Source of the DNA: Thermodesulfobacteriota bacterium
GTDB taxonomy: Bacteria; Desulfobacterota_D; UBA1144; Nemesobacterales; N074bin48
Direction of reading: 5' to 3'
Length of the DNA: 64,000 nt
Assembly (NCBI GenBank): GCA_041572575.1
Contig: JBFFSH010000003.1
Location: 1 to 64,000 of the forward strand
Shown here piece by piece: positions 28,669 through 63,897 of the stretch. Position 1 is the stretch's first letter. Each line of letters opens with the position of its first letter. Below the pieces are notes generated by a model that worked only from the letters and a program-made list of their open reading frames with translations, ran no database searches and was not told where the DNA came from. The translations under genes and the position numbers were made by a program.

Positions 28669-30603
28669 ATGCCTTTAATCAGTCTAAACGAAGTTAAACT
28701 TTCCTTTGGTGGGCCTCTGCTTTTTGATGATCTGAACTTACAGATTGAGCATGGTGAGAGGGTTGCGCTTATTGGAAGGAACGGAGTTGGTAAGACCTCG
28801 CTTATGAAGGTTATTGCTCGGGAGTTGGATATTGATGATGGTAAGATCACTTATCAAAAAGGTTTAACTGTTACTCATCTTCCTCAGGAAATTCCAAAAC
28901 AGATGGAGGGTAAAGCATTTGATATTGTTCTATCCGGACTTGGAGAGCGGGCAAAGCTTATTAATGACTATTACCATCTGAGTCGAGAGGTAAGTAGTAA
29001 GAGCAGTCCCGAATTACTTAAAAGGCTCGATGCATTGCAGTCCGAGCTTGAGAGGACAGATGGCTGGAAGATTGAAAACGAGGTGGAATCGGTAATTAGT
29101 CACCTTGGTCTCGAACCCGAAAGTGAATTTCGCAATCTCTCTGGCGGGCAGAAAAGAAGGGTACTGCTTGCAAGAGCTTTAGTTATTAATCCTGATCTAC
29201 TCATGCTTGATGAGCCCACAAACCATCTGGATATTGATTCAATACAATGGCTTGAAGAATTTTTAAAGGCATGTAAAAGCACACTTTTTTTTGTAACTCA
29301 TGACAGGAAATTTATGAAAAATCTTGCTACACGGATTATAGAGCTTGACCGCGGGAGCATATTTAACTGGCAGTGTGATTACGATACATTTTTACAGAGA
29401 AAGCAGCAGGAGTTGGATTCTGAAGGAAAGCATAATGCGCTTTTTGATAAAAAACTTGCTGCTGAAGAATTATGGCTCAGAAAGGGAGTAAGAGCAAGGC
29501 GGACAAGAAATGAGGGCCGTGTGAGAGCCCTCATGAAAATGAGAGAAGAAAAACGTGCCCGCAGGACAGAAATTGGCAACGCTAAAATGCTTACTCAAAA
29601 ATCCGAGATTTCAGGACGCCAGGTAATCAAGGCTACAAAAATTAGTTTTAGCTATCATGATCAAAAACTAATTCATGACTTTTCTACACTTATTATGCGT
29701 GGTGAGAAAGTAGGAATTATTGGTCCCAATGGATCAGGAAAGACTACGTTGATTAATCTGTTACTAGGAAATATTAAACCACAAGAGGGAGAGGTTATTG
29801 TAGGCACCAATCTTGAAATTGCCTACTTTGATCAGCTGAGAGAACAGCTGGATGAAAGCAAAAACGTAATGGACAATGTTGGCGGGGGAAAAGATACTGT
29901 CACGATTAACGGCAAAGACCGTCATATTATTGGATACCTGCAGGATTTTCTTTTTTCTTCAGACAGGTGCAAGGAAAAGATACACAGGCTTTCGGGGGGC
30001 GAGCGCAACAGGCTTGTGCTTGCAAAATTATTTACTCGACCCTCTAATCTGCTCGTGATGGACGAGCCTACAAATGACCTCGATATTGAAACTTTGGAAC
30101 TGCTGGAAGACCTGCTGGTTGAATATCCGGGTACTATCATTTTAGTAAGCCACGATAGGGAATTTTTAGACAATGTTGTCACTTCTACAATTGTATTTGA
30201 AGGTAATGGTAAATTAAATGAATATCCGGGGGGCTACTATGACTGGCTCTATCAAAGAGAAAAGCTGGTTTATAATTCGCAGAATAAAAAAGAAGAAAAA
30301 GCAGATATAGAGATAATAAAGCCGGTAAAGAAGAATTCACCCAAACCCAGGAAGCTTAGTTTTAAAGAAAATAAAGAACTGGAAGAACTACCGCAAATAA
30401 TAGAAAAGCTTGAGCAGGAACAAAAAGAGATTTTTACTACCCTTTCAGATGCAGGTTACTATAAAAAGGATCCAAAAGAAATTGAATCCACTCAGGCAAG
30501 GTCAGAACAAATTGAAAAAGAAATTTCAAATGCATACGAACGTTGGAATTACCTGGAACAGCTAAGAGAAGAAATACAAAGAGAGGCAGCTACAACTAAT
30601 TAA
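28669..30603 (+). CDS. uup: ABC-F family ATPase Uup
   Basis: Two ABC domains (GRNGVGKT, LSGGQ, DEPTNHLD; GPNGSGKT, LSGGE), W.R.GV.AR.TRNEGRVRAL linker and C-terminal coiled coil. Confidence 0.92.
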   Translation: MPLISLNEVKLSFGGPLLFDDLNLQIEHGERVALIGRNGVGKTSLMKVIARELDIDDGKITYQKGLTVTHLPQEIPKQMEGKAFDIVLSGLGERAKLINDYYHLSREVSSKSSPELLKRLDALQSELERTDGWKIENEVESVISHLGLEPESEFRNLSGGQKRRVLLARALVINPDLLMLDEPTNHLDIDSIQWLEEFLKACKSTLFFVTHDRKFMKNLATRIIELDRGSIFNWQCDYDTFLQRKQQELDSEGKHNALFDKKLAAEELWLRKGVRARRTRNEGRVRALMKMREEKRARRTEIGNAKMLTQKSEISGRQVIKATKISFSYHDQKLIHDFSTLIMRGEKVGIIGPNGSGKTTLINLLLGNIKPQEGEVIVGTNLEIAYFDQLREQLDESKNVMDNVGGGKDTVTINGKDRHIIGYLQDFLFSSDRCKEKIHRLSGGERNRLVLAKLFTRPSNLLVMDEPTNDLDIETLELLEDLLVEYPGTIILVSHDREFLDNVVTSTIVFEGNGKLNEYPGGYYDWLYQREKLVYNSQNKKEEKADIEIIKPVKKNSPKPRKLSFKENKELEELPQIIEKLEQEQKEIFTTLSDAGYYKKDPKEIESTQARSEQIEKEISNAYERWNYLEQLREEIQREAATTN

Positions 30604-30608
30604 ATACT

Positions 30609-31325
30609 ATGTCAGATTACGATGTTATTGGAAAATTTTATGATGATATCATGGGTGATCAGAAAGAATCTGCCAGACAGATACATAATCTGATTAAGAA
30701 GAGTTGCCCTAAAGCAAAAACTTTACTGGAACTTGGCTGCGGCACGGGCTCATACTTAAAATATTTGTCCAAATATTATGAAACTACCGGTATTGATAGT
30801 TCTTCTGTCATGTTATCAATTGCAAGAGAAAAGCTTCCGGATACAGAGCTTTACCAGGCAAGCATGCTCGAGGTTAAACTGGAAAGGAAGTTTGATGTGG
30901 TTATTTGTATGAATGATACATTCAACCACCTAACAAAAATAGCAGATCTAAAGAGATTATTTTCAAATTCATTTGATCATCTAATAGAAAAGGGAATATT
31001 AATCTTTGATATAAATACAGAACACAAACTAAGGTCTCTTTCAGAAACTCCACCAATTGTTCATCAATTTGATGAAAACTATTTTATTACAAATGTAACC
31101 CGTGAGAATAAAGATATATATGAATGGGATCTGAGGATTTTTGAGCACATATCTGATAATACATACAACCTGTATGAAGAACTGTTGTATGAGCGGTCCT
31201 ATTCGGTTGCCCAAATAAAGGATTATCTTGGTAAAAAATTTAAAAATATTAGAGTTTTAGATTTAAGCAGCAAAAAAACAAGCCCTGAATCTCAAAGGCT
31301 GCATTTTACATGTACTAAAAAGTAA
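30609..31325 (+). CDS. Class I SAM-dependent methyltransferase
   Basis: LELGCGTG, GID.S..ML and FDVVIC..D..NHL motifs. Confidence 0.9.
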   Translation: MSDYDVIGKFYDDIMGDQKESARQIHNLIKKSCPKAKTLLELGCGTGSYLKYLSKYYETTGIDSSSVMLSIAREKLPDTELYQASMLEVKLERKFDVVICMNDTFNHLTKIADLKRLFSNSFDHLIEKGILIFDINTEHKLRSLSETPPIVHQFDENYFITNVTRENKDIYEWDLRIFEHISDNTYNLYEELLYERSYSVAQIKDYLGKKFKNIRVLDLSSKKTSPESQRLHFTCTKK

Positions 31326-31336
31326 TTGCTCTTGAT

Positions 31337-31433
31337 AATAAAATGCGGGAGTAAACTAAATTGCTTACACCCGCATTTTCCTAATTAAAGGAGGATGGAG
31401 GATGGCATGTAATTAAGTAATTAACTTAATATT
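31337..31433 (-). ncRNA. Candidate small RNA with tandem CCUCC motifs
   Basis: Minus-strand order: promoter, 5' hairpin (AUUAAGU/ACUUAAU), GCCAUCCUCCAUCCUCCUUU, then terminator. Ends are approximate. Confidence 0.5.
31340..31379. terminator. Bidirectional intrinsic terminator hairpin
   Basis: AAAATGCGGG-A-GTAA / TTAC-A-CCCGCATTTT inverted repeat with A/T tails on both sides. Confidence 0.8.
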
Positions 31434-31438
31434 TATTA

Positions 31439-31468
31439 ATAATATAAAGCACAATACTTAATTGTCAA
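31439..31468 (-). promoter_or_regulatory. Sigma70-type promoter for the candidate sRNA
   Basis: TTGACA (31468-31463), then TATATT at a 16-nt spacer or TATTAT at an 18-nt spacer; no ORF lies between it and the terminator. Confidence 0.6.
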
Positions 31469-31578
31469 TCTTTAATTTTATTCTTACTGAAATATTATAT
31501 ATTGAGTGAGTAGACAGAATTTGGGTAATATCCGAATTAATTATTAAATATTAATAAATGGTCTGCAAGTATCCTAAA

Positions 31579-31926
31579 TCAAAGAAGTTTTTTCTTGAAT
31601 TTGTTTACAGACTCATCTACATAATTAACCCGGTCTAAAAGTTTGGTAAAAACTACCGGATAGTCTGATTCAACTGCACCCCTGTTATCCGGAACACCAT
31701 AATACCCTGGATTTCCCGGATCACCCCTATGGCCAATCCTCTCAGGATGTCTCTCTTTAGTATCAATAACCATGCCATCCTGAAGCTTTCCCACATACTC
31801 ACCGTTCATCTTGTGGACATTTTCTCCATTTAGCTGTCCTACGGCCTGACCATGCAGAGTATGAATATAACCTGAATTTATATAACCTACAGGGTTTCCC
31901 TGATCATCATAAACATATTTTGGCAT
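31579..31926 (-). CDS. Small protein with repeated beta-hairpin motifs (4-fold beta-flower-like)
   Basis: Repeats YDDQGNPVGYI / HTLHGQAVGQL / HKMNGEYVGKL followed by a Pro/Gly-rich tail. Confidence 0.65.
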   Translation of the reverse strand: MPKYVYDDQGNPVGYINSGYIHTLHGQAVGQLNGENVHKMNGEYVGKLQDGMVIDTKERHPERIGHRGDPGNPGYYGVPDNRGAVESDYPVVFTKLLDRVNYVDESVNKFKKKLL

Positions 31927-32082
31927 CTTGAAATCTCCTAAATATATTTTAGCCCATATAAATTAAAGCTGATGGATAATGCGCTGGTATATGTAAATAT
32001 TTTAACTAAAAAATCATAATTTGTGGAGTTATTAGATCTAAAGAGTTTGTATTTCTCTATTAATCATTAATATAAAACCTTA

Positions 32083-32958
32083 ATGTCATCAAACAACTGG
32101 AAGATAATTCTATTAATTTTTACAATCATTACGTGGGGCTACTCATGGATACTAATGAAGCAATCACTTCAGTATATGGAACCATTTACTTTTATAGCCC
32201 TCAGGCATGTTGTGGCTGCTATTGTACTGCTACCTCTTATGCTTTTTCATGGTTCTTTTAAGTTAAAGAATTTTAGCAATCCGCACTTTTTTTTAATTGG
32301 CCTTATTCAAACCGCTGCCATGATGGCTTTTATAATCTACGGGATGAAGTTTGTAACGGCAGGTAAAACCTCTGTGATAGTCTATACAATGCCCGTGTGG
32401 ACAAGTCTGTTGTTACATTTCTTACTAAAAGAAAAGCTGAATAATGCTAAATGGACAGGAGTTGGATTAGGGCTTATTGGTACGCTTTGCATTTTAGGCT
32501 GGGATGCGATTTCGGTTCAGAGCAGAGATATAATATATGGAGAAGCATTAATAATACTTGCTGCTGTCTGTTGGGCTGCCTCAAATATATTAAACAGAAA
32601 AAAACTAAACAATGAAAATCCCTTTATTGTAAATGGTTATCAGCTTTTTTACGGTGCCGTTATTTTAGTAATACTGGCGTATATATCAGAAGGAGCTTTT
32701 AAGGTAGACTGGAACTATCATTCTGTATTCATTGTGCTTTTTACAGGCATAGTCGCTTCAGCAATAAATTTTTCCATATGGTTTTATCTCATAAACAGCT
32801 ATGATATCAATATTACCACTTCATCATCCCTTCTTGTTCCTGTTGTAGGCATAGTTTTAGACTGGTTCATACTTGGAACAACACTGGACATAGGTGTGCT
32901 TGCCGGAGGTCTGTTGATTGTTCTGGGTCTGTATAAAATTTCAACCGCAAAAGCTTAA
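32083..32958 (+). CDS. EamA/DMT family transporter
   Basis: About 10 TM segments, WG..W...K, LKEKL and duplicated EamA halves. Confidence 0.92.
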   Translation: MSSNNWKIILLIFTIITWGYSWILMKQSLQYMEPFTFIALRHVVAAIVLLPLMLFHGSFKLKNFSNPHFFLIGLIQTAAMMAFIIYGMKFVTAGKTSVIVYTMPVWTSLLLHFLLKEKLNNAKWTGVGLGLIGTLCILGWDAISVQSRDIIYGEALIILAAVCWAASNILNRKKLNNENPFIVNGYQLFYGAVILVILAYISEGAFKVDWNYHSVFIVLFTGIVASAINFSIWFYLINSYDINITTSSSLLVPVVGIVLDWFILGTTLDIGVLAGGLLIVLGLYKISTAKA

Positions 32959-33980
32959 GACACCTTCGGCAAAACCTTATCTGCAAAAAGCTTCATTCAT
33001 CTCATGGCCTCATCGTGGCTTATTCCAGGAAACTTGAACCTGCAAATAATGTTATTAACCGGTAGGTTTTCCTTATATTCATTGATTTGATCTATACACT
33101 CTTCCGGAGTTCCTATGATAGCCTGATCCCTAGCTATACCGTATAGAACCGGATCATTCGGATCACTTAACAAGTTGCCTTCCCTGTCTACCATAGATCC
33201 CCAGGAGGCATATCCCTTTGCTGTGTATGTAACGTGTTCTTTAATATCTTCCCAAGCGTCATCACTCTTTTTATCAGATATATACATCTCTCTTACAAGT
33301 GGTTTTTCAATTTCATCAGGATTATGACCATACTCTTCCAGCATTGACGAATGCATTCCAAATAGTGCTTTTATTATTGGAATCACTCCAATTGCCGGCA
33401 CATACAGCGGCGCTCCAATTCTAGCTGCCCTTCTTATTGCAGGTTCTGTGAATGCTCCGATCCAAATAGGGATGGGCTGCTGTACTGGTTTTGGAGTTAT
33501 ATTAACATCTTTTAATCTATAATATTTACCATTGTGGCTGAACTTTCCATCTGCCCATGCCCTGGTAAAAATATCGAGGCTTTCTTCAATCCTGCCTTTT
33601 CTTTCTTTGAGCGCCCTTCCAAAGCCATCAAATTCCTCCTTCCTGTATCCAAGTCCAAGACCCAGTATTAGTCTGCCTTCTGAAATAAGATCTACTACAG
33701 CAGCATCTTCGGCAATACGTACGGGGTCGTGAAGAGGAATAAGAAGTACACCTGTTCCAATTCTTATGTTCTTAGTTCTTGCGGCAATGGCGCCTGCTGT
33801 TACCATAAGCGATGGGCAGTATCCATCAGCAAGGAAATGATGCTCAGTAAGCCATGCAGAGTCAAAACCCATTTGATCTGCCGTGCTAATTTCATCCAGC
33901 ATCTCTTTATAAAGCTCAGCGTGTTTTCTTGGTTTATGCGGTGGTGACTGAAGACTGTAATATCCTATTCCGTATTTCAT
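32955..33980 (-). CDS. LLM-class flavin-dependent (possibly F420-dependent) oxidoreductase with an in-frame TGA at 32999-32997
   Basis: GFDSAWLTEHHF, P.RIAEDAA.VDLIS.GRL.LGLG.GY and PKPVQ.P.PIW motifs. Reading past the TGA gives the typical C-terminal helix MKLFADKVLPKVS. Confidence 0.9.
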
Positions 33981-58937: not shown

Positions 58938-59293
58938 ATAATTAAATGATTTGATTAATAAGGTTTAATTTCTAAGTTGGATGCATTATTATTGTGATCG
59001 ATACACATAAATCAATAAACGCTTTGCAAATTAGTGAGAGATAATTATGAAACAGATTTTAAATTCGAAACCTTTTTGGATAAATCTGGTAATATTTTAA
59101 TAAAAATGGTAATAACACGATTGACATTTAAGTAATATACTTTAATTTAAATTACAAAATTAATATAATAACTTAAATTATGTTTGAGATTCGAATAATA
59201 AGACTTTTATTTATACCTTTTGTCTGTTAGCTTTTCACCTTTACTAATTACTAAAATGAAAATAGTATCTATTACTACGATTCGGAGGAATAT

Positions 59294-60775
59294 ATGAAAT
59301 ATTTTTTAATTACTGCCTTTTTAATATCTAGTTCATTATTTTTTAGCTCATGCGAGCGTGTAAAAGAAAATGTTGTAAAAGAACAGCCCAAACAAGAAGT
59401 TAAAACTGAAAAACCAAAACCTGTAGAGAGTGCAGATAGAAATGAAATTCCGATCTCACCTTCAACCGGCCTACCATCATTTGCTGATCTTGTAAAAACA
59501 TTAAAGCCTGCAGTTGTGAATATAAGCACGACCAACAAAGTGCAGAGAAGATCATCTCCATTCTCTTATCCCTTTGATCAGGGCCATCCTTTTGATGAAT
59601 TTTTCAAAAAATTCTTTGAGGGAGAGCCTTCACAGGAATTTAAGCAAAGGGGTCTTGGTACGGGATTCATAATTAGTAAAGACGGCTTTATTGTTACAAA
59701 CAACCATGTGATTGAAAAGGCAGACGATATTGAGATTAATTTAGAAGATGGAGAGAAATACGAGGCCAAGATTATAGGGAAAGATCCGAAAACCGATTTA
59801 GCACTGCTAAAAATAGATGCTGAAAGAGATTTTCCATTTGTAGAGTTTGGTGATTCTGAAAATTCTGAAATAGGAGACTGGGTAATAGCAATTGGAAACC
59901 CGTTTGGCCTTGGACATACCGTAACTGCAGGAATAATAAGTGCCAAGGGAAGAATTCTTGGTATTGGAAACTATGACGATTTTATTCAGACCGACGCTCC
60001 AATTAACCCGGGAAACAGCGGCGGACCTTTATTTAACCTTAAAGGGGAAGTAGTAGGGGTAAACACTGCAATAATTGCAAGAGGTCAGGGGCTTGGTTTT
60101 TCAATTCCTGTAAACCTTACTAAGCACGTTATAGACCAGATCAAGGACAGTGGCAGAGTGGTAAGGGGATGGCTTGGAATTTCCATACAAAAAGTTACAC
60201 CGGAAATTGCTGATGTAATTGGCGTAAAAGATGGTGAAGGGGTATTAGTTGCAGATGTTATGGATAAAAGTCCTGCTCAGACAGGAGGGCTGCTAAGAGG
60301 TGATATCATCCTTGAGTATAACGGTGAAAAAATAGTAGAAGTATCAGATTTAACAGGAAAAGTAGCGCTTACTCCGCCAGGAGAGATATCTAGGCTTAAG
60401 ATAATAAGGGATAAAAAAATCCAGGAAATAAGACTGAAAATTGGCGAATTTCCAGAGGACGAAAAAGTAGCAACGAAAGTTGATGAACCTAAAGCAAAGT
60501 TTGGTCTTGTGGTTGTAGATATTACACCGAAAATTGCAAACAGATTAAATCTCGATTCTACTGATGGGGTAATAGTAAATTCTGTTTCAAGAGGTTCTGC
60601 TGCGGGCGAGGCAGGTTTTAAAAGAGGGGATATAATATTAGAGATCAACAGGGTAAAAGTTAAAAATGTTGATGAGTACAATAAGCGCCTTGAAGATATA
60701 GGCGAAGGTAATTCAGCGCTCTTTTTGATTAAAAGGGGTGAAACTACGGTTTATATTGGTCTTAAGATCGAATAA
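59294..60775 (+). CDS. degQ: DegP/DegQ (HtrA) serine protease with two PDZ domains
   Basis: TNNHV, DLALLK and IQTDAPINPGNSGGPL motifs, two PDZ domains, possible lipobox FFSS-C. Confidence 0.93.
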   Translation: MKYFLITAFLISSSLFFSSCERVKENVVKEQPKQEVKTEKPKPVESADRNEIPISPSTGLPSFADLVKTLKPAVVNISTTNKVQRRSSPFSYPFDQGHPFDEFFKKFFEGEPSQEFKQRGLGTGFIISKDGFIVTNNHVIEKADDIEINLEDGEKYEAKIIGKDPKTDLALLKIDAERDFPFVEFGDSENSEIGDWVIAIGNPFGLGHTVTAGIISAKGRILGIGNYDDFIQTDAPINPGNSGGPLFNLKGEVVGVNTAIIARGQGLGFSIPVNLTKHVIDQIKDSGRVVRGWLGISIQKVTPEIADVIGVKDGEGVLVADVMDKSPAQTGGLLRGDIILEYNGEKIVEVSDLTGKVALTPPGEISRLKIIRDKKIQEIRLKIGEFPEDEKVATKVDEPKAKFGLVVVDITPKIANRLNLDSTDGVIVNSVSRGSAAGEAGFKRGDIILEINRVKVKNVDEYNKRLEDIGEGNSALFLIKRGETTVYIGLKIE

Positions 60776-60785
60776 TGTGCTACTT

Positions 60786-61457
60786 TTAGGTCTTAACACT
60801 TATTTGAGAAGCAGCTTCAGATCCTACATTTACATTATTTCCATCAATTTCAAGAACTATTGAGCCACCATAAGGCTCTATTTTTATGAGTGTGAATTTA
60901 GTGTCGGGCTTTATTCCCAGTTCATCAAAATATTGTAGAAGCTTAGGGTCTTCATCCGGAACCTCAGAGATAGTTCCTTTAGTACCCTCTTCAAGATCGG
61001 TAAGTAAACAAAGGTCTTCACTCTCTAAAATAAGGTCTTTTGTGGGAATGGGAGACCCATGTGGATCATGGGTAGGATGGTTTAAGGCTTCTGCCATTCT
61101 CTTTTCCAGATCTTCGGATATTACATGTTCTAGTTTTTCAGCCTCATTATGTACCTTATCCCATGGCACTCCCAAGGCTTCATACAGGTATTGTTCAATT
61201 AATCTGTGGTGTCTTATGGTTTCCAGAGCCATTTTATTTCCTGACTCTGTAAGAGCTACTCCCTTATAAGGTTCGTGAGTTACAAGTTTTAGGTCTACAA
61301 GCCGTTTTACCATTTGTGTCACAGTTGGTGCAGACACACTCAAACTCTTAGCAAGATCGTTGGTGTTTGCCTTGCCTTTTTTTTGTATCAGGTTGAAAAT
61401 AGCCTTTATATAATCTTCCATTACAGAAGAAGTTTCTTGTCCTATCGTGCTGCTCAT
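60786..61457 (-). CDS. DtxR/MntR/IdeR family metal-dependent regulator with FeoA-like C-terminal domain
   Basis: EDYIKAI, RHHRLIE, EAEKLEH and DPHGSPIP motifs. Confidence 0.93.
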   Translation of the reverse strand: MSSTIGQETSSVMEDYIKAIFNLIQKKGKANTNDLAKSLSVSAPTVTQMVKRLVDLKLVTHEPYKGVALTESGNKMALETIRHHRLIEQYLYEALGVPWDKVHNEAEKLEHVISEDLEKRMAEALNHPTHDPHGSPIPTKDLILESEDLCLLTDLEEGTKGTISEVPDEDPKLLQYFDELGIKPDTKFTLIKIEPYGGSIVLEIDGNNVNVGSEAASQISVKT

Positions 61458-61648
61458 TATGTACTATAAACAATAATATCTGTTAGTTCCAAATATTTTT
61501 ATACGCCTTTAATACCATTATAAGTTTGAAATCATAACCTAGTATAATATACTATTACATTAAATCATTGTTTTTACTTTTTATAAGAATCTAATTTCTA
61601 AACTTTTTATCTAAATAAATCAGGTTTTAACAAATCGGGACACAACTA

Positions 61649-62929
61649 ATGAGAACGCGCAATTTTGAAAAAGATGAACTATTTGAGCAGTTTAGAGCTG
61701 TAAGAGAGTTTAGTGAACAAATTTCATCTCCGCTTTGTACAGAAGATTATGTCATTCAGTCCATGCCCGATGTTAGCCCTACAAAGTGGCACCTTGCTCA
61801 CACAAGCTGGTTTTTTGAAGCGTTTGTTTTAGAAAAATATGATAAAAAATACAAGTCACTCCATCCTCAGTATAACTACCTGTTTAATTCCTATTATGCT
61901 TTAGTGGGTGAGAGACACTGTAGACCCAAAAGAGGGCTTATCTCGAGACCTACAGTGGATGAAGTGTATAAATATAGAGAATATGTGAACAGTAAAATCG
62001 AAGGACTTTTTACAAAAAGCAGTGAAAAAGAGTTTCAAAAGCATGCTCCTGTTATTGAAATAGGCGTTCATCATGAAAGGCAGCATCAGGAGCTTATGGT
62101 TACTGATATTAAACATGTATTTTCAGAAAATCCATTAAGACCGGTTTATTTAGAAGCTCCGCCTAATGGAAATAATGGCAAAATAACCAAACATAAATGG
62201 ATTTCGTTCCCAGAGGGCTTATATGAAATTGGCCATCAGGATGAAAGTTTTTGTTATGATAATGAAACACCGAGACACAAGAAATTTCTAAATCCGTTCA
62301 AGCTCTCATCCAGGCTTGTAACAAACGGGGAATTTATTGAATTTATAGAGGATGGTGGTTATACAAGACCGGAGCTTTGGCTATCAAATGGTATTTATAC
62401 TGCAGAAGATAACGGATGGCAGGCACCGCTGTATTGGGAAAAAGAAGGAAGTAAATGGCATCACTTTACACTTTCCGGGTTTAAAGAGCTAAACCTGGCT
62501 GAGCCGGTATGTCACGTGAGCTTCTATGAGGCTGATGCCTATGCCCGCTGGAAAGGTGCAAGGCTTCCCACTGAGGCTGAATGGGAAATAACTTCTGAAG
62601 ACTTGGAAATTGAAGGAAACTTTGTTGAAGACGCCAGATATAATCCCGTACCTCTTAACGGCGGCTCAAAAAACGGAAAGCTTCACCAGATGTATGGTGA
62701 TGTGTGGGAATGGACATCAAGCCCTTATGTTTGTTATCCGGGGTACAAAACTCTTCCGGGTGCCCTGGGTGAATATAACGGGAAGTTTATGTCTAACCAG
62801 ATGGTTCTGCGTGGCGGCTCATGCGCGACTTCTATCACACATATTAGAAATACTTACAGAAATTTCTTTCCACCTGACTCAAGATGGCAGTTTATGGGTA
62901 TAAGACTCGCACAAGATGAAAATAGATGA
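61649..62929 (+). CDS. egtB: Ergothioneine biosynthesis sulfoxide synthase EgtB
   Basis: QSMPDVSPTKWHLAHT, FNSYY, HHERQHQEL, RLPTEAEWE and EYNGKFM motifs. Confidence 0.94.
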   Translation: MRTRNFEKDELFEQFRAVREFSEQISSPLCTEDYVIQSMPDVSPTKWHLAHTSWFFEAFVLEKYDKKYKSLHPQYNYLFNSYYALVGERHCRPKRGLISRPTVDEVYKYREYVNSKIEGLFTKSSEKEFQKHAPVIEIGVHHERQHQELMVTDIKHVFSENPLRPVYLEAPPNGNNGKITKHKWISFPEGLYEIGHQDESFCYDNETPRHKKFLNPFKLSSRLVTNGEFIEFIEDGGYTRPELWLSNGIYTAEDNGWQAPLYWEKEGSKWHHFTLSGFKELNLAEPVCHVSFYEADAYARWKGARLPTEAEWEITSEDLEIEGNFVEDARYNPVPLNGGSKNGKLHQMYGDVWEWTSSPYVCYPGYKTLPGALGEYNGKFMSNQMVLRGGSCATSITHIRNTYRNFFPPDSRWQFMGIRLAQDENR

Positions 62930-63897
62930 TACTAATGAGTGAAAGTGTTCTTAAATTAAATACCGAAGATCCCAGTGACCAGCATTTATTAGAAGAAATA
63001 CTAGTTGGTCTCAGCAAGGAACAAAAGGAGCTTCCATGCAAGCTGTTTTATGACAAAAAGGGCTCAGAGCTTTTCGATCAGATAACAGCTCTTCCGGAGT
63101 ACTATCCCACTCGCACAGAAATTGGAATAATTAAGTCCAACATAGACGAGATTGCCAAATGTATAGGTAAAAACAGCCTTCTTGTTGAGCTTGGAAGTGG
63201 AAGTAGTATGAAAATACGCCTTCTCCTAGGAGGATTAAAAGAGATTAGCGCATATGTGCCGCTTGATATTTCCTATAACCATCTTATTGAATCTACCAAT
63301 ACGCTTTCAAAAGATTTTCCCGATATAAGAATAATTCCTCTTTGTGTCGACTACACAAAGCCATTTGAATTTCCTAAATTTGATTTCGAATGGGAAAAAT
63401 TGGTAGTCTTTTACCCCGGCTCTACAATTGGTAATTTTCACCCCTCTTATGCAAGGAAGTTTCTGGCAAATGTTGCAAAACGCACTGGTAAGGGAAGCGG
63501 GCTTCTAATAGGGGTTGATCTTAAAAAAGACAAGGCTGTTATTGAAAATGCTTATAATGACACTAAAGGAATAACGGCAGAGTTTAATTTGAATATTCTG
63601 TACAGGCTAAACTCTGATATTGGTTTTAATTTTGATACCGATAAATGGGAACATAGTGCAATATATAACGAAAATCAAGGCAGAATAGAAATGCACCTTG
63701 TAAGTTTAACTAATCAAAGAGTATCTCATAACGGCAGCAAAATATCTTTTGATAAGGACGAATCGATTATAACCGAGTATTCATATAAGTATTCTCTGGA
63801 CGAGTTTGAAGAACTTATAAAAGATTACTATAATGTTCAAAAAGTCTGGGTAGACAGCAACAAAAGATTTAGCCTGCAGTATTTAAGCGTTATATGA
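62926..63897 (+). CDS. egtD: L-histidine N-alpha-methyltransferase EgtD
   Basis: YD..GSELF..IT.LPEYYPTRTE, ELGSG, PGSTIGNF and TE.SYKY motifs. Confidence 0.95.
   Translation: MILMSESVLKLNTEDPSDQHLLEEILVGLSKEQKELPCKLFYDKKGSELFDQITALPEYYPTRTEIGIIKSNIDEIAKCIGKNSLLVELGSGSSMKIRLLLGGLKEISAYVPLDISYNHLIESTNTLSKDFPDIRIIPLCVDYTKPFEFPKFDFEWEKLVVFYPGSTIGNFHPSYARKFLANVAKRTGKGSGLLIGVDLKKDKAVIENAYNDTKGITAEFNLNILYRLNSDIGFNFDTDKWEHSAIYNENQGRIEMHLVSLTNQRVSHNGSKISFDKDESIITEYSYKYSLDEFEELIKDYYNVQKVWVDSNKRFSLQYLSVI

Follow-up and report, generated by a model that had tools for sequence, protein, structure and literature searches.

Enterobacteria repress porins with the small RNAs (sRNAs) RybB and MicA, which are driven by sigma-E, depend on Hfq and belong to an envelope regulon that includes degP, and Staphylococcus aureus RsaE has a C-rich seed. 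Streptococci carry the near-identical siblings csRNA1-5 under the control of CiaR, with htrA in the same regulon; two reports describe csRNAs as having an unpaired region complementary to the Shine-Dalgarno (SD) element and to AUG, with CAU as the anti-AUG in 53 of 61, as ending in a terminator, and as acting additively on the mRNA of an exported peptide (PMC3091779; PMC4507080). The CiaR box, as given in PMC3091779, is the direct repeat TTTAAG-N5-TTTAAG, located upstream of the -10 at activated promoters. PMC4132741 describes Listeria LhrC1-5 as multicopy, CU-rich RNAs that block translation of an envelope-protein mRNA by Hfq-independent pairing. According to PMC4615179, the alphaproteobacterial cuckoo family (RSs0680/CcsR, ar14) comprises multicopy anti-SD RNAs with two to four hairpins and CCUCCUCCC in each loop. 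For the uncultured phylum Dadabacteria, the literature searched describes no regulatory RNA or regulon.

Here, we analysed a 64,000-nt stretch of Dadabacteria DNA (the window), on the minus strand of which an earlier note had proposed an sRNA gene. The -35 hexamer TTGACA (31463..31468) is followed after a 16-nt spacer by the -10 hexamer TATATT (31441..31446), or after 18 nt by the alternative TATTAT; these two pairings are the best of ten promoter-like sites in 30000-33000, a number below the shuffle mean of 13. The predicted RNA of ~98 nt (31337..31434, minus strand) would start 7 nt after the -10 hexamer and end within a U-tract. Two palindromes, termed putative operators 1 and 2, accompany the promoter: TTAAG-N7-CTTTA (31445..31461) in the promoter spacer, overlapping the -10 hexamer, and TTAAG-N7-CTTAA (TTAAGT-TAATT-ACTTAA; 31413..31429) at about +6 to +22, where the earlier note had seen a 5' hairpin. 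The seed CAUCCUCCAUCCUCCUUUAA (31385..31404, minus strand), that is C-(AUCCUCC)x2-UUUAA, combines an anti-AUG, 7 nt and an anti-SD; its letters CATCCTCCATCCTCCTTTAA occupy 31404-31385 of the minus strand. An intrinsic terminator (31335..31379, minus strand) completes the locus, with its stem at 31379-31340 and its U-tract reaching about 31335, and probably also ends the mRNA of the convergent SAM-dependent methyltransferase gene (30609..31325, plus strand; Pfam Methyltransf_25). The upstream neighbour encodes a beta-flower protein (31579..31926, minus strand; Pfam Bflower). Both neighbours form singleton clusters and neither is conserved beside other copies of the RNA. The earlier note had claimed that no ORF separates promoter from terminator, and none of 60 aa or more is present within 31325-31579. 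Folding of a 97-nt stretch gave -28.8 kcal/mol (z -6.4), equalled by 0 of 200 shuffles; without the terminator, z was -1.9 (9 of 200 shuffles), so that nearly all of the fold signal is the terminator. A simple terminator scan did not return this hairpin.

Compared with the csRNAs, the Dadabacteria RNA likewise presents a single-stranded CAU-N7-CCUCCUUU that would cover both SD and start codon, and its siblings likewise stand under one promoter type, which degP/htrA also carries in this genus. In contrast to the CiaR box, the Dadabacteria element, although its half-site is similar, is a 17-bp inverted repeat, TTAAG-N7-CTTAA, present twice 32 bp apart over the spacer and the start. The csRNAs also have two stem-loops rather than one, and the phylum and the regulon, here type II secretion, are different; no sequence homology was seen (no Rfam match). 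The RNA resembles LhrC1-5 in being multicopy and CU-rich and in its predicted action on an envelope-protein mRNA without Hfq. The cuckoo motif CCUCCUCCC is absent, the Dadabacteria core being CAUCCUCCAUCCUCCUUU with AUCCUCC twice; unlike the cuckoo motif, this core is unpaired (mean unpaired probability 0.84) and outside loops, and the consensus fold has the terminator alone. The C-rich seed recalls RsaE, and predicted porin repression and a degP-containing envelope regulon recall RybB and MicA, but the promoter here is of the sigma-70 type (TTGACA/TATWTT) with operators, Hfq was found in 0 of 6 genomes (this one and five others), and the secretion machine itself forms the protein arm. The locus also differs from Csr/Rsm sponge RNAs, since GGA lies on the non-promoter strand and CsrA was found in 0 of 41 genomes.

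The reading that we favour, at a probability of roughly 0.6, is that the locus encodes a sibling sRNA that belongs to a type II secretion regulon and represses a porin. The gene in the window is conserved in Dadabacteria, is present in four copies in this genome and encodes a likely trans-acting sRNA; its dual-palindrome promoter is common to the RNA and the type II secretion operons. A putative DNA-binding protein, probably a repressor, would release this promoter and thereby likely switch on RNA and secretion operons together. The unpaired C-rich seed is predicted to pair over the SD and AUG of target mRNAs and block their translation, chiefly that of an OprO/P-type outer-membrane porin plus other exported proteins; gspC and gspL, with short leaders lacking an SD, would escape. 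The presumed purpose is to lower porin and export load while secretins and pseudopili assemble. More tentative is a dedicated 'secretion switch', in which the control of one transcription factor would in essence be confined to the two type II secretion operons plus the sibling RNAs, with Hfq-free shut-off of a major porin and other exported proteins. If true, such a switch would trade outer-membrane uptake and export capacity for secretin assembly, and the RNAs would make up the non-coding side of a secretion-system regulon, having been acquired, amplified and lost along with the machine. What emerges is a new sRNA family, along with a new operator motif whose regulon is very small and a target prediction that is both specific and conserved. 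If this is right, type II secretion is linked to porin repression via sibling RNAs; such wiring would be a convergent counterpart of the csRNA and sigma-E circuits, within a Gram-negative lineage in which neither Hfq nor CsrA was found.

By DNA search, 43 of 61 genomes from the order had matches, with several in each, and a scan of a genome collection for the exact 19-nt core returned at least 118 stretches, most of the titles listed being Dadabacteria or related labels. The order promoter-palindrome-core-terminator, which the earlier note had placed correctly in the window, is far beyond chance: among the matches listed, it recurs in 114 of 128 unique core-bearing rows, with a TTGACA-like hexamer 64-110 nt before the core end. 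The 14 promoter-less rows among these matches comprise one contig-end row and 13 others, ten of which carry titles of other bacteria; those inspected look like ordinary gene starts on the opposite strand. The single match in a viral collection was discarded, as it, too, resembles a gene start on the opposite strand.

A covariance model trained on 33 copies matched 76 of 81 genomes of the order at E<=1e-3, two f6 matches being marginal (5e-4, 9e-4), and 91 of 120 genomes of the phylum at E<=1e-4, which bears out the conservation of C-rich core and terminator. The window copy, a member of the training set, matched at 31326-31429 with 63.2 bits (E 2e-11). At E<=1e-4, the RNA was found in 0 of 6 genomes of lineage f6, 0 of 19 of f9 and 32 of 36 of g8, and the remaining families were complete. 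Copy number is 1-6 per genome; the four copies here are that of the window, two on contig C28 and one, promoter-less, on C8. Neighbours at 85 flanked loci fall into 76 clusters, with the downstream gene on either strand and occasional tandem copies, and since neighbours vary among copies the gene appears free-standing. Rfam gave no match at or above a gathering threshold in the window, where five weak ones of 10-17 bits fell far below it, and only neighbouring tRNAs in 20 homologous loci. The open-access literature searched holds no description of the family. The copies are paralogous intergenic genes, each with its own promoter and terminator and a common seed, as is characteristic of sibling trans-acting sRNAs; judged by sequence comparison, this is an undescribed, phylum-wide, multicopy sRNA family.

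In the terminator alignment, 12 of 13 pairs show two-sided changes and 93.6% of cells are paired, a structure derived from that same alignment of kindred copies. Of 114 copies among the matches listed, 108 have five or more U in the 9 nt that follow the stem, and G-U pairs number 247 on the promoter strand versus 113 on the opposite strand among these copies. Because of the G-U excess and the U-tails, the RNA is assigned to the promoter strand. The motif TCATCCTCCATCCTCCTTTAA is present in 103 of 114 rows among the matches listed, rows that were collected by that very motif; the core was also recovered independently downstream of the promoter in a promoter-first metagenome scan. A stand-alone, trans-acting anti-SD RNA of ~95-100 nt is well supported as a prediction because of its own conserved promoter, covarying terminator, unpaired invariant core and unrelated neighbours in both orientations, and the RNA is very probably transcribed as a discrete molecule. 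The earlier note's undescribed ~95-nt trans-acting regulator therefore stands on comparative evidence as an anti-SD RNA but not as a lone gene, as it appears to have several siblings in a type II secretion regulon. Twelve sequencing runs contain part of the region; the assembled contigs of the eight compared have a flat, low, DNA-like depth of ~2-11 that runs across promoter and genes alike.

The two palindromes are arranged with high regularity. Measured from the first T of TTGACA, operator 1 starts at a distance of 8 nt in 108 of the 114 copies among the matches listed and of 7 nt in five, including the window copy; its positions A3, A4, C13, T14 and T15 are invariant (109 of 109 scored copies), and operator 2 follows at 32 bp in 106 of 114. 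The -10 hexamers at the family position, among the same matches, are TATTTT (46), TATATT (32), TACTTT (10), TATAAT (5) and TATTAT (5). The sequence AUUAAGU-UAAUU-ACUUAAU, read in the earlier note as a hairpin (31430-31412), does contain the palindrome at 31429-31413, but as an RNA helix it fared poorly. Of 109 copies among the matches listed, only 46, 55 and 44 retain the respective inner pairs of operator 2, one of six pairs shows a two-sided change, and the RNAalifold consensus did not predict this palindrome as a helix. We rejected the RNA hairpin on its fixed 17-bp length, its twin 32 bp upstream in the untranscribed spacer, its unrepaired mismatches and its loss in some lineages. In g8, the spacer site alone is left in 6 of 6 copies; in three f3 copies and two others, the transcribed site is gone and a site upstream of the -35 is present instead, at 24 bp in four rows and again 32 bp in phase. 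The 5' palindrome, TTAAG-N7-CTT(A/T)A, is thus likely a DNA operator bound by a protein. The operators overlie the spacer, the edge of the -10 hexamer and about +6 to +22, a placement that suggests repression rather than activation; the f3 operator upstream of the -35 also fits an activator.

To define the regulon, a promoter model trained on RNA copies was applied to this genome. It found five sites of 48-56 bits, namely three RNA copies, gspC and degP; the next-best site scored 16.5, and one shuffled genome had none of 14 or more. A strict promoter pattern occurred in 50 of 81 genomes (reversed control, 0). Fifteen promoter loci of relatives without an RNA match were fetched: twelve lead into gspC-like ORFs, two into a type III polyketide-synthase-like gene and one into a variant RNA. 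The polyketide-synthase-like gene under the dual-operator promoter belongs to two g13 genomes (L174, L175), and its top NCBIfam match is DpgA, below cut-off. The promoter-first metagenome scan returned at least 125 stretches with 130 matches; among the matches listed, 113 were unique, comprising 78 with the core, two variant or gapped RNAs, 30 gspC by BLAST, one gspC by eye and two that were cut. All 111 informative unique matches among those listed are therefore RNA (80) or gspC (31), with a pattern that represents the 8-nt-offset class only and would miss both window promoters. The 57-bp promoter signature also serves as a metagenome marker for the RNA family and gspC.

The first secretion operon comprises gspC, gspD (with LysM domains), E, F and G; the second locus comprises gspL, gspM and gspN, with GspL and GspM scores below cut-offs. 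Operator and TTGAC (score >=16.8) precede gspL at 19 of 22 scorable non-g8 loci, one more being too short. In g8, the operator motif is lost at gspC (0 of 3) and gspL (0 of 7), while the RNA retains operator 1. Start codons of gspC and gspL lie 0-7 nt past operator 2 in most genomes (L157, L161-L173, L239-L260), and their leaders are A/U-rich, ~25 nt long and without an SD. The GspD secretin (C72:4223-9079; L157) has 1618 aa and six N-terminal LysM domains; the frames of relatives mostly have 700-1000 aa.

The second dual-operator promoter of the window (59121..59176, plus strand; 48.6 bits by the promoter model) precedes a Do-family serine protease gene, degP/htrA (59294..60775, plus strand; TIGR02037 at 497.8 bits, over cut-off; Pfam trypsin and PDZ). 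The same promoter was found in a same-genus genome (46.7 bits) and at none of 28 other DegP-family loci, a comparison with 2 of 30 loci positive, both of this genus, and with best matches that may be paralogues. A general envelope-stress regulon via degP was rejected, its membership being limited to this genus. Single intergenic operator sites scoring >=17 number 8 versus 0.4 in shuffles; the genes behind them, including a pilin-like gene, the XRE gene and a lipoprotein, are likely genus-level additions. Operator-like single sites stand at C79:553 (pilin-like gene), C33:2806 (repetitive lipoprotein), C1:45759 (glnB; also in the same-genus genome) and C27:21180, before what is presumably a lytic transglycosylase gene.

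The distribution of the RNA was compared with that of the secretion system. Most genomes have two secretins. Lineage f6 has the RNA in 0 of 6 genomes, gspC in 0 of 2 and gspL in 0 of 6, and its sole secretin lies, by coordinates, 3-4 kb from the XRE gene (the PilQ-type locus) in 6 of 6 genomes; f9 has neither RNA nor secretin (0 of 19 each). Lineage g8 retains a GspD-type secretin and one RNA copy (32 of 36). By coordinates, the single secretin of the g8 and g16 genomes checked comes after gspC, and these genomes have the RNA. This pattern fits joint loss of the RNA and type II secretion, in two reduced-genome lineages only.

Several genes were considered as the operator-binding regulator. The XRE gene (C22:25216-25629; L156) is single-copy with a near-invariant helix in 78 of 81 genomes of the order and 5 of 5 pelagic-clade genomes; in many genomes it lies a few kb from a PilQ-type secretin and is followed by two genes without Pfam match. 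It has an operator upstream in 2 of 30 loci, both of this genus, and is kept in f6 (6 of 6) and f9 (5 of 5), lineages without the RNA, which argues against it. It stays a candidate because the helix is nearly invariant, but we regard it as unlikely to be the regulator. A MerR-like gene is less likely still; it and a DtxR-like gene are kept in f6 (2 of 2 each). The remaining odds go to a regulator other than the XRE or MerR-like protein. The LuxR/GerE family was found in 0 of 5 genomes, three of these with the RNA, and no site lies upstream of the sole Fur-family gene (score 3.6). A TetR ortholog is co-distributed with the RNA (88 of 120 genomes; f6 0 of 6, f9 0 of 19), but was rejected as its own promoter carries another palindrome, TGACTGAC-N-AGTCAGT, and no operator. 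That palindrome, at the TetR gene (C44:9260-9916) and L394-L401, might define a small undescribed regulon.

Potential targets were ranked by duplex energies computed without mRNA structure, using script-called starts and crude signal-peptide calls in related genomes. Because G002 is represented by its first 440 kb, the ranking was based on 1015 ortholog pairs of this genome and G029, followed by gene-wise replication. The best predicted target was the OprO/P-type porin, at rank 1. Of 30 porin loci, two lacked a callable start, one was from f6 and two had been used in selection, which left 25 held-out ribosome-binding sites (RBSs). These averaged -19.8 kcal/mol, whereas the mean of 139 AGGAGG genes was -15.1 kcal/mol (p 2e-7 by the Mann-Whitney test, on kin that are not independent). 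In the 16S-tail control, the two groups were alike (-12.4 vs -12.5, p 0.28). The 5' half of the seed gained 6.7 for porins versus 3.3 for AGGAGG genes, a shuffled 5' half equalled the porin value in 2 of 500 trials, and GAG stands directly 5' of the start codon in 11 of 25 porins versus 4 of 139 AGGAGG genes. One of the 25 porin RBSs scored only -5.9, and the single f6 porin RBS -11.7. In this genome, AGGAGG genes with signal peptides paired more strongly than others (-16.4 vs -14.3, p 3e-4; 16S control p 0.10), an effect that was marginal in G029 (p 0.05). Signal-peptide genes made up 45% of the top-100 predicted RBSs here versus 20% of the background, and 37% with the plain 16S tail. The secretion genes gspC, gspL and gspF ranked 627, 561 and 969 of 1015. 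Promoter, RNA and porin leader are all amenable to work in a laboratory strain, with no need to culture the host.

The RNA might instead be co-regulated with type II secretion but act as a broad brake on all strong-SD mRNAs, possibly those of nitrogen uptake, with the porin unprivileged. We consider this unlikely, though it is the best placed of the alternatives. An anti-SD seed will pair with any strong RBS. The core is the exact complement of UUAAAGGAGG-AUGGAGG-AUG, a generic SD followed after 7 nt by a start codon, and apparent gene starts of unrelated bacteria share these letters. AGGAGG genes as a whole also outdo the shuffled-seed control (3 of 100), which makes generic anti-AUG pairing part of the 5' gain, and the exported share is 55 of 139 for AGGAGG genes compared with 497 of 2324 overall. 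Among the 1015 pairs, glnA ranks 2, a BBP2 porin beside amt 6, two ammonium transporters 8 and 17, and ureI 16. However, these five genes were chosen after the ranking, and the 16S control ranks them nearly as high (mean 16.4 vs 9.8). In replication, 22 scorable non-f6 glnA RBSs (two more had no called start) averaged -15.0, equal to the AGGAGG mean, whereas the porin replicated. The glnB promoter operator is clear in this genus only, and the nitrogen-regulon idea, replicated for neither glnA nor glnB, was dropped.

Doubtful, too, is a reading in which the AUCCUCC repeat binds protein or RNA without mRNA pairing, as a 16S 3'-end decoy, a KH-protein sponge or a regulator feedback device. Multicopy, near-identical motifs are typical of protein sponges, the tandem heptamer seed resembles the 16S tail of this genome, GGAUCACCUCCUUU, and a Jag/EloR-like KH protein is present with a score below cut-off. 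Yet each RNA has a single motif block. Core variants, recovered via the covariance model or the promoter, are mostly C-to-U, which preserves pairing to G. CAU keeps its distance of 7 nt ahead of the anti-SD even in copies with a decayed spacer (L278, L279), and the porin RBSs mirror the entire seed, all of which speaks for pairing of the proposed sRNA with mRNA.

A cis-acting element, either a regulated leader or attenuator or a bidirectional terminator with a conserved promoter, is less probable again. Three copy groups do lie upstream of same-strand genes (16, 16 and 14 loci), and the plus strand can form the hairpin as well (-24.9 kcal/mol), just past the methyltransferase stop. But the three downstream genes are mutually unrelated, many copies, among them that of the window, have a convergent gene opposite, some copies stand in tandem (L064, L087), and the consensus fold consists of the terminator only, with no antiterminator predicted. 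A functional plus strand, which the earlier note had raised as a GGA-rich CsrA site or an MEDGM micro-ORF, is very improbable: although AAAGGAGG-ATGGAGG-ATG is a textbook SD with two ATGs, no CsrA was found in those 41 genomes, ORFs from either ATG range from 2 to >40 codons across the 114 copies among the matches listed, a TTGACA-like hexamer is present on the opposite strand in one of these 114, and both the G-U pairs and the U-tails point to the minus strand.

Further observations concern the copies and their surroundings. The promoter-less copy on C8 (36340-36684; L158) has its core and terminator 9 nt past the stop of an 86-aa signal-peptide ORF, which has no Pfam or NCBIfam match, and may be a 3'UTR-derived sibling; genome G054 has two further promoter-less copies (L280, L281). 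The assembly contains two different 16S rRNA 3' ends (C91, C100), one of which may be a contaminant. In the window, 60786-63897 holds a DtxR/MntR-family regulator gene convergent on degP, followed by an egtB-egtD ergothioneine pair.
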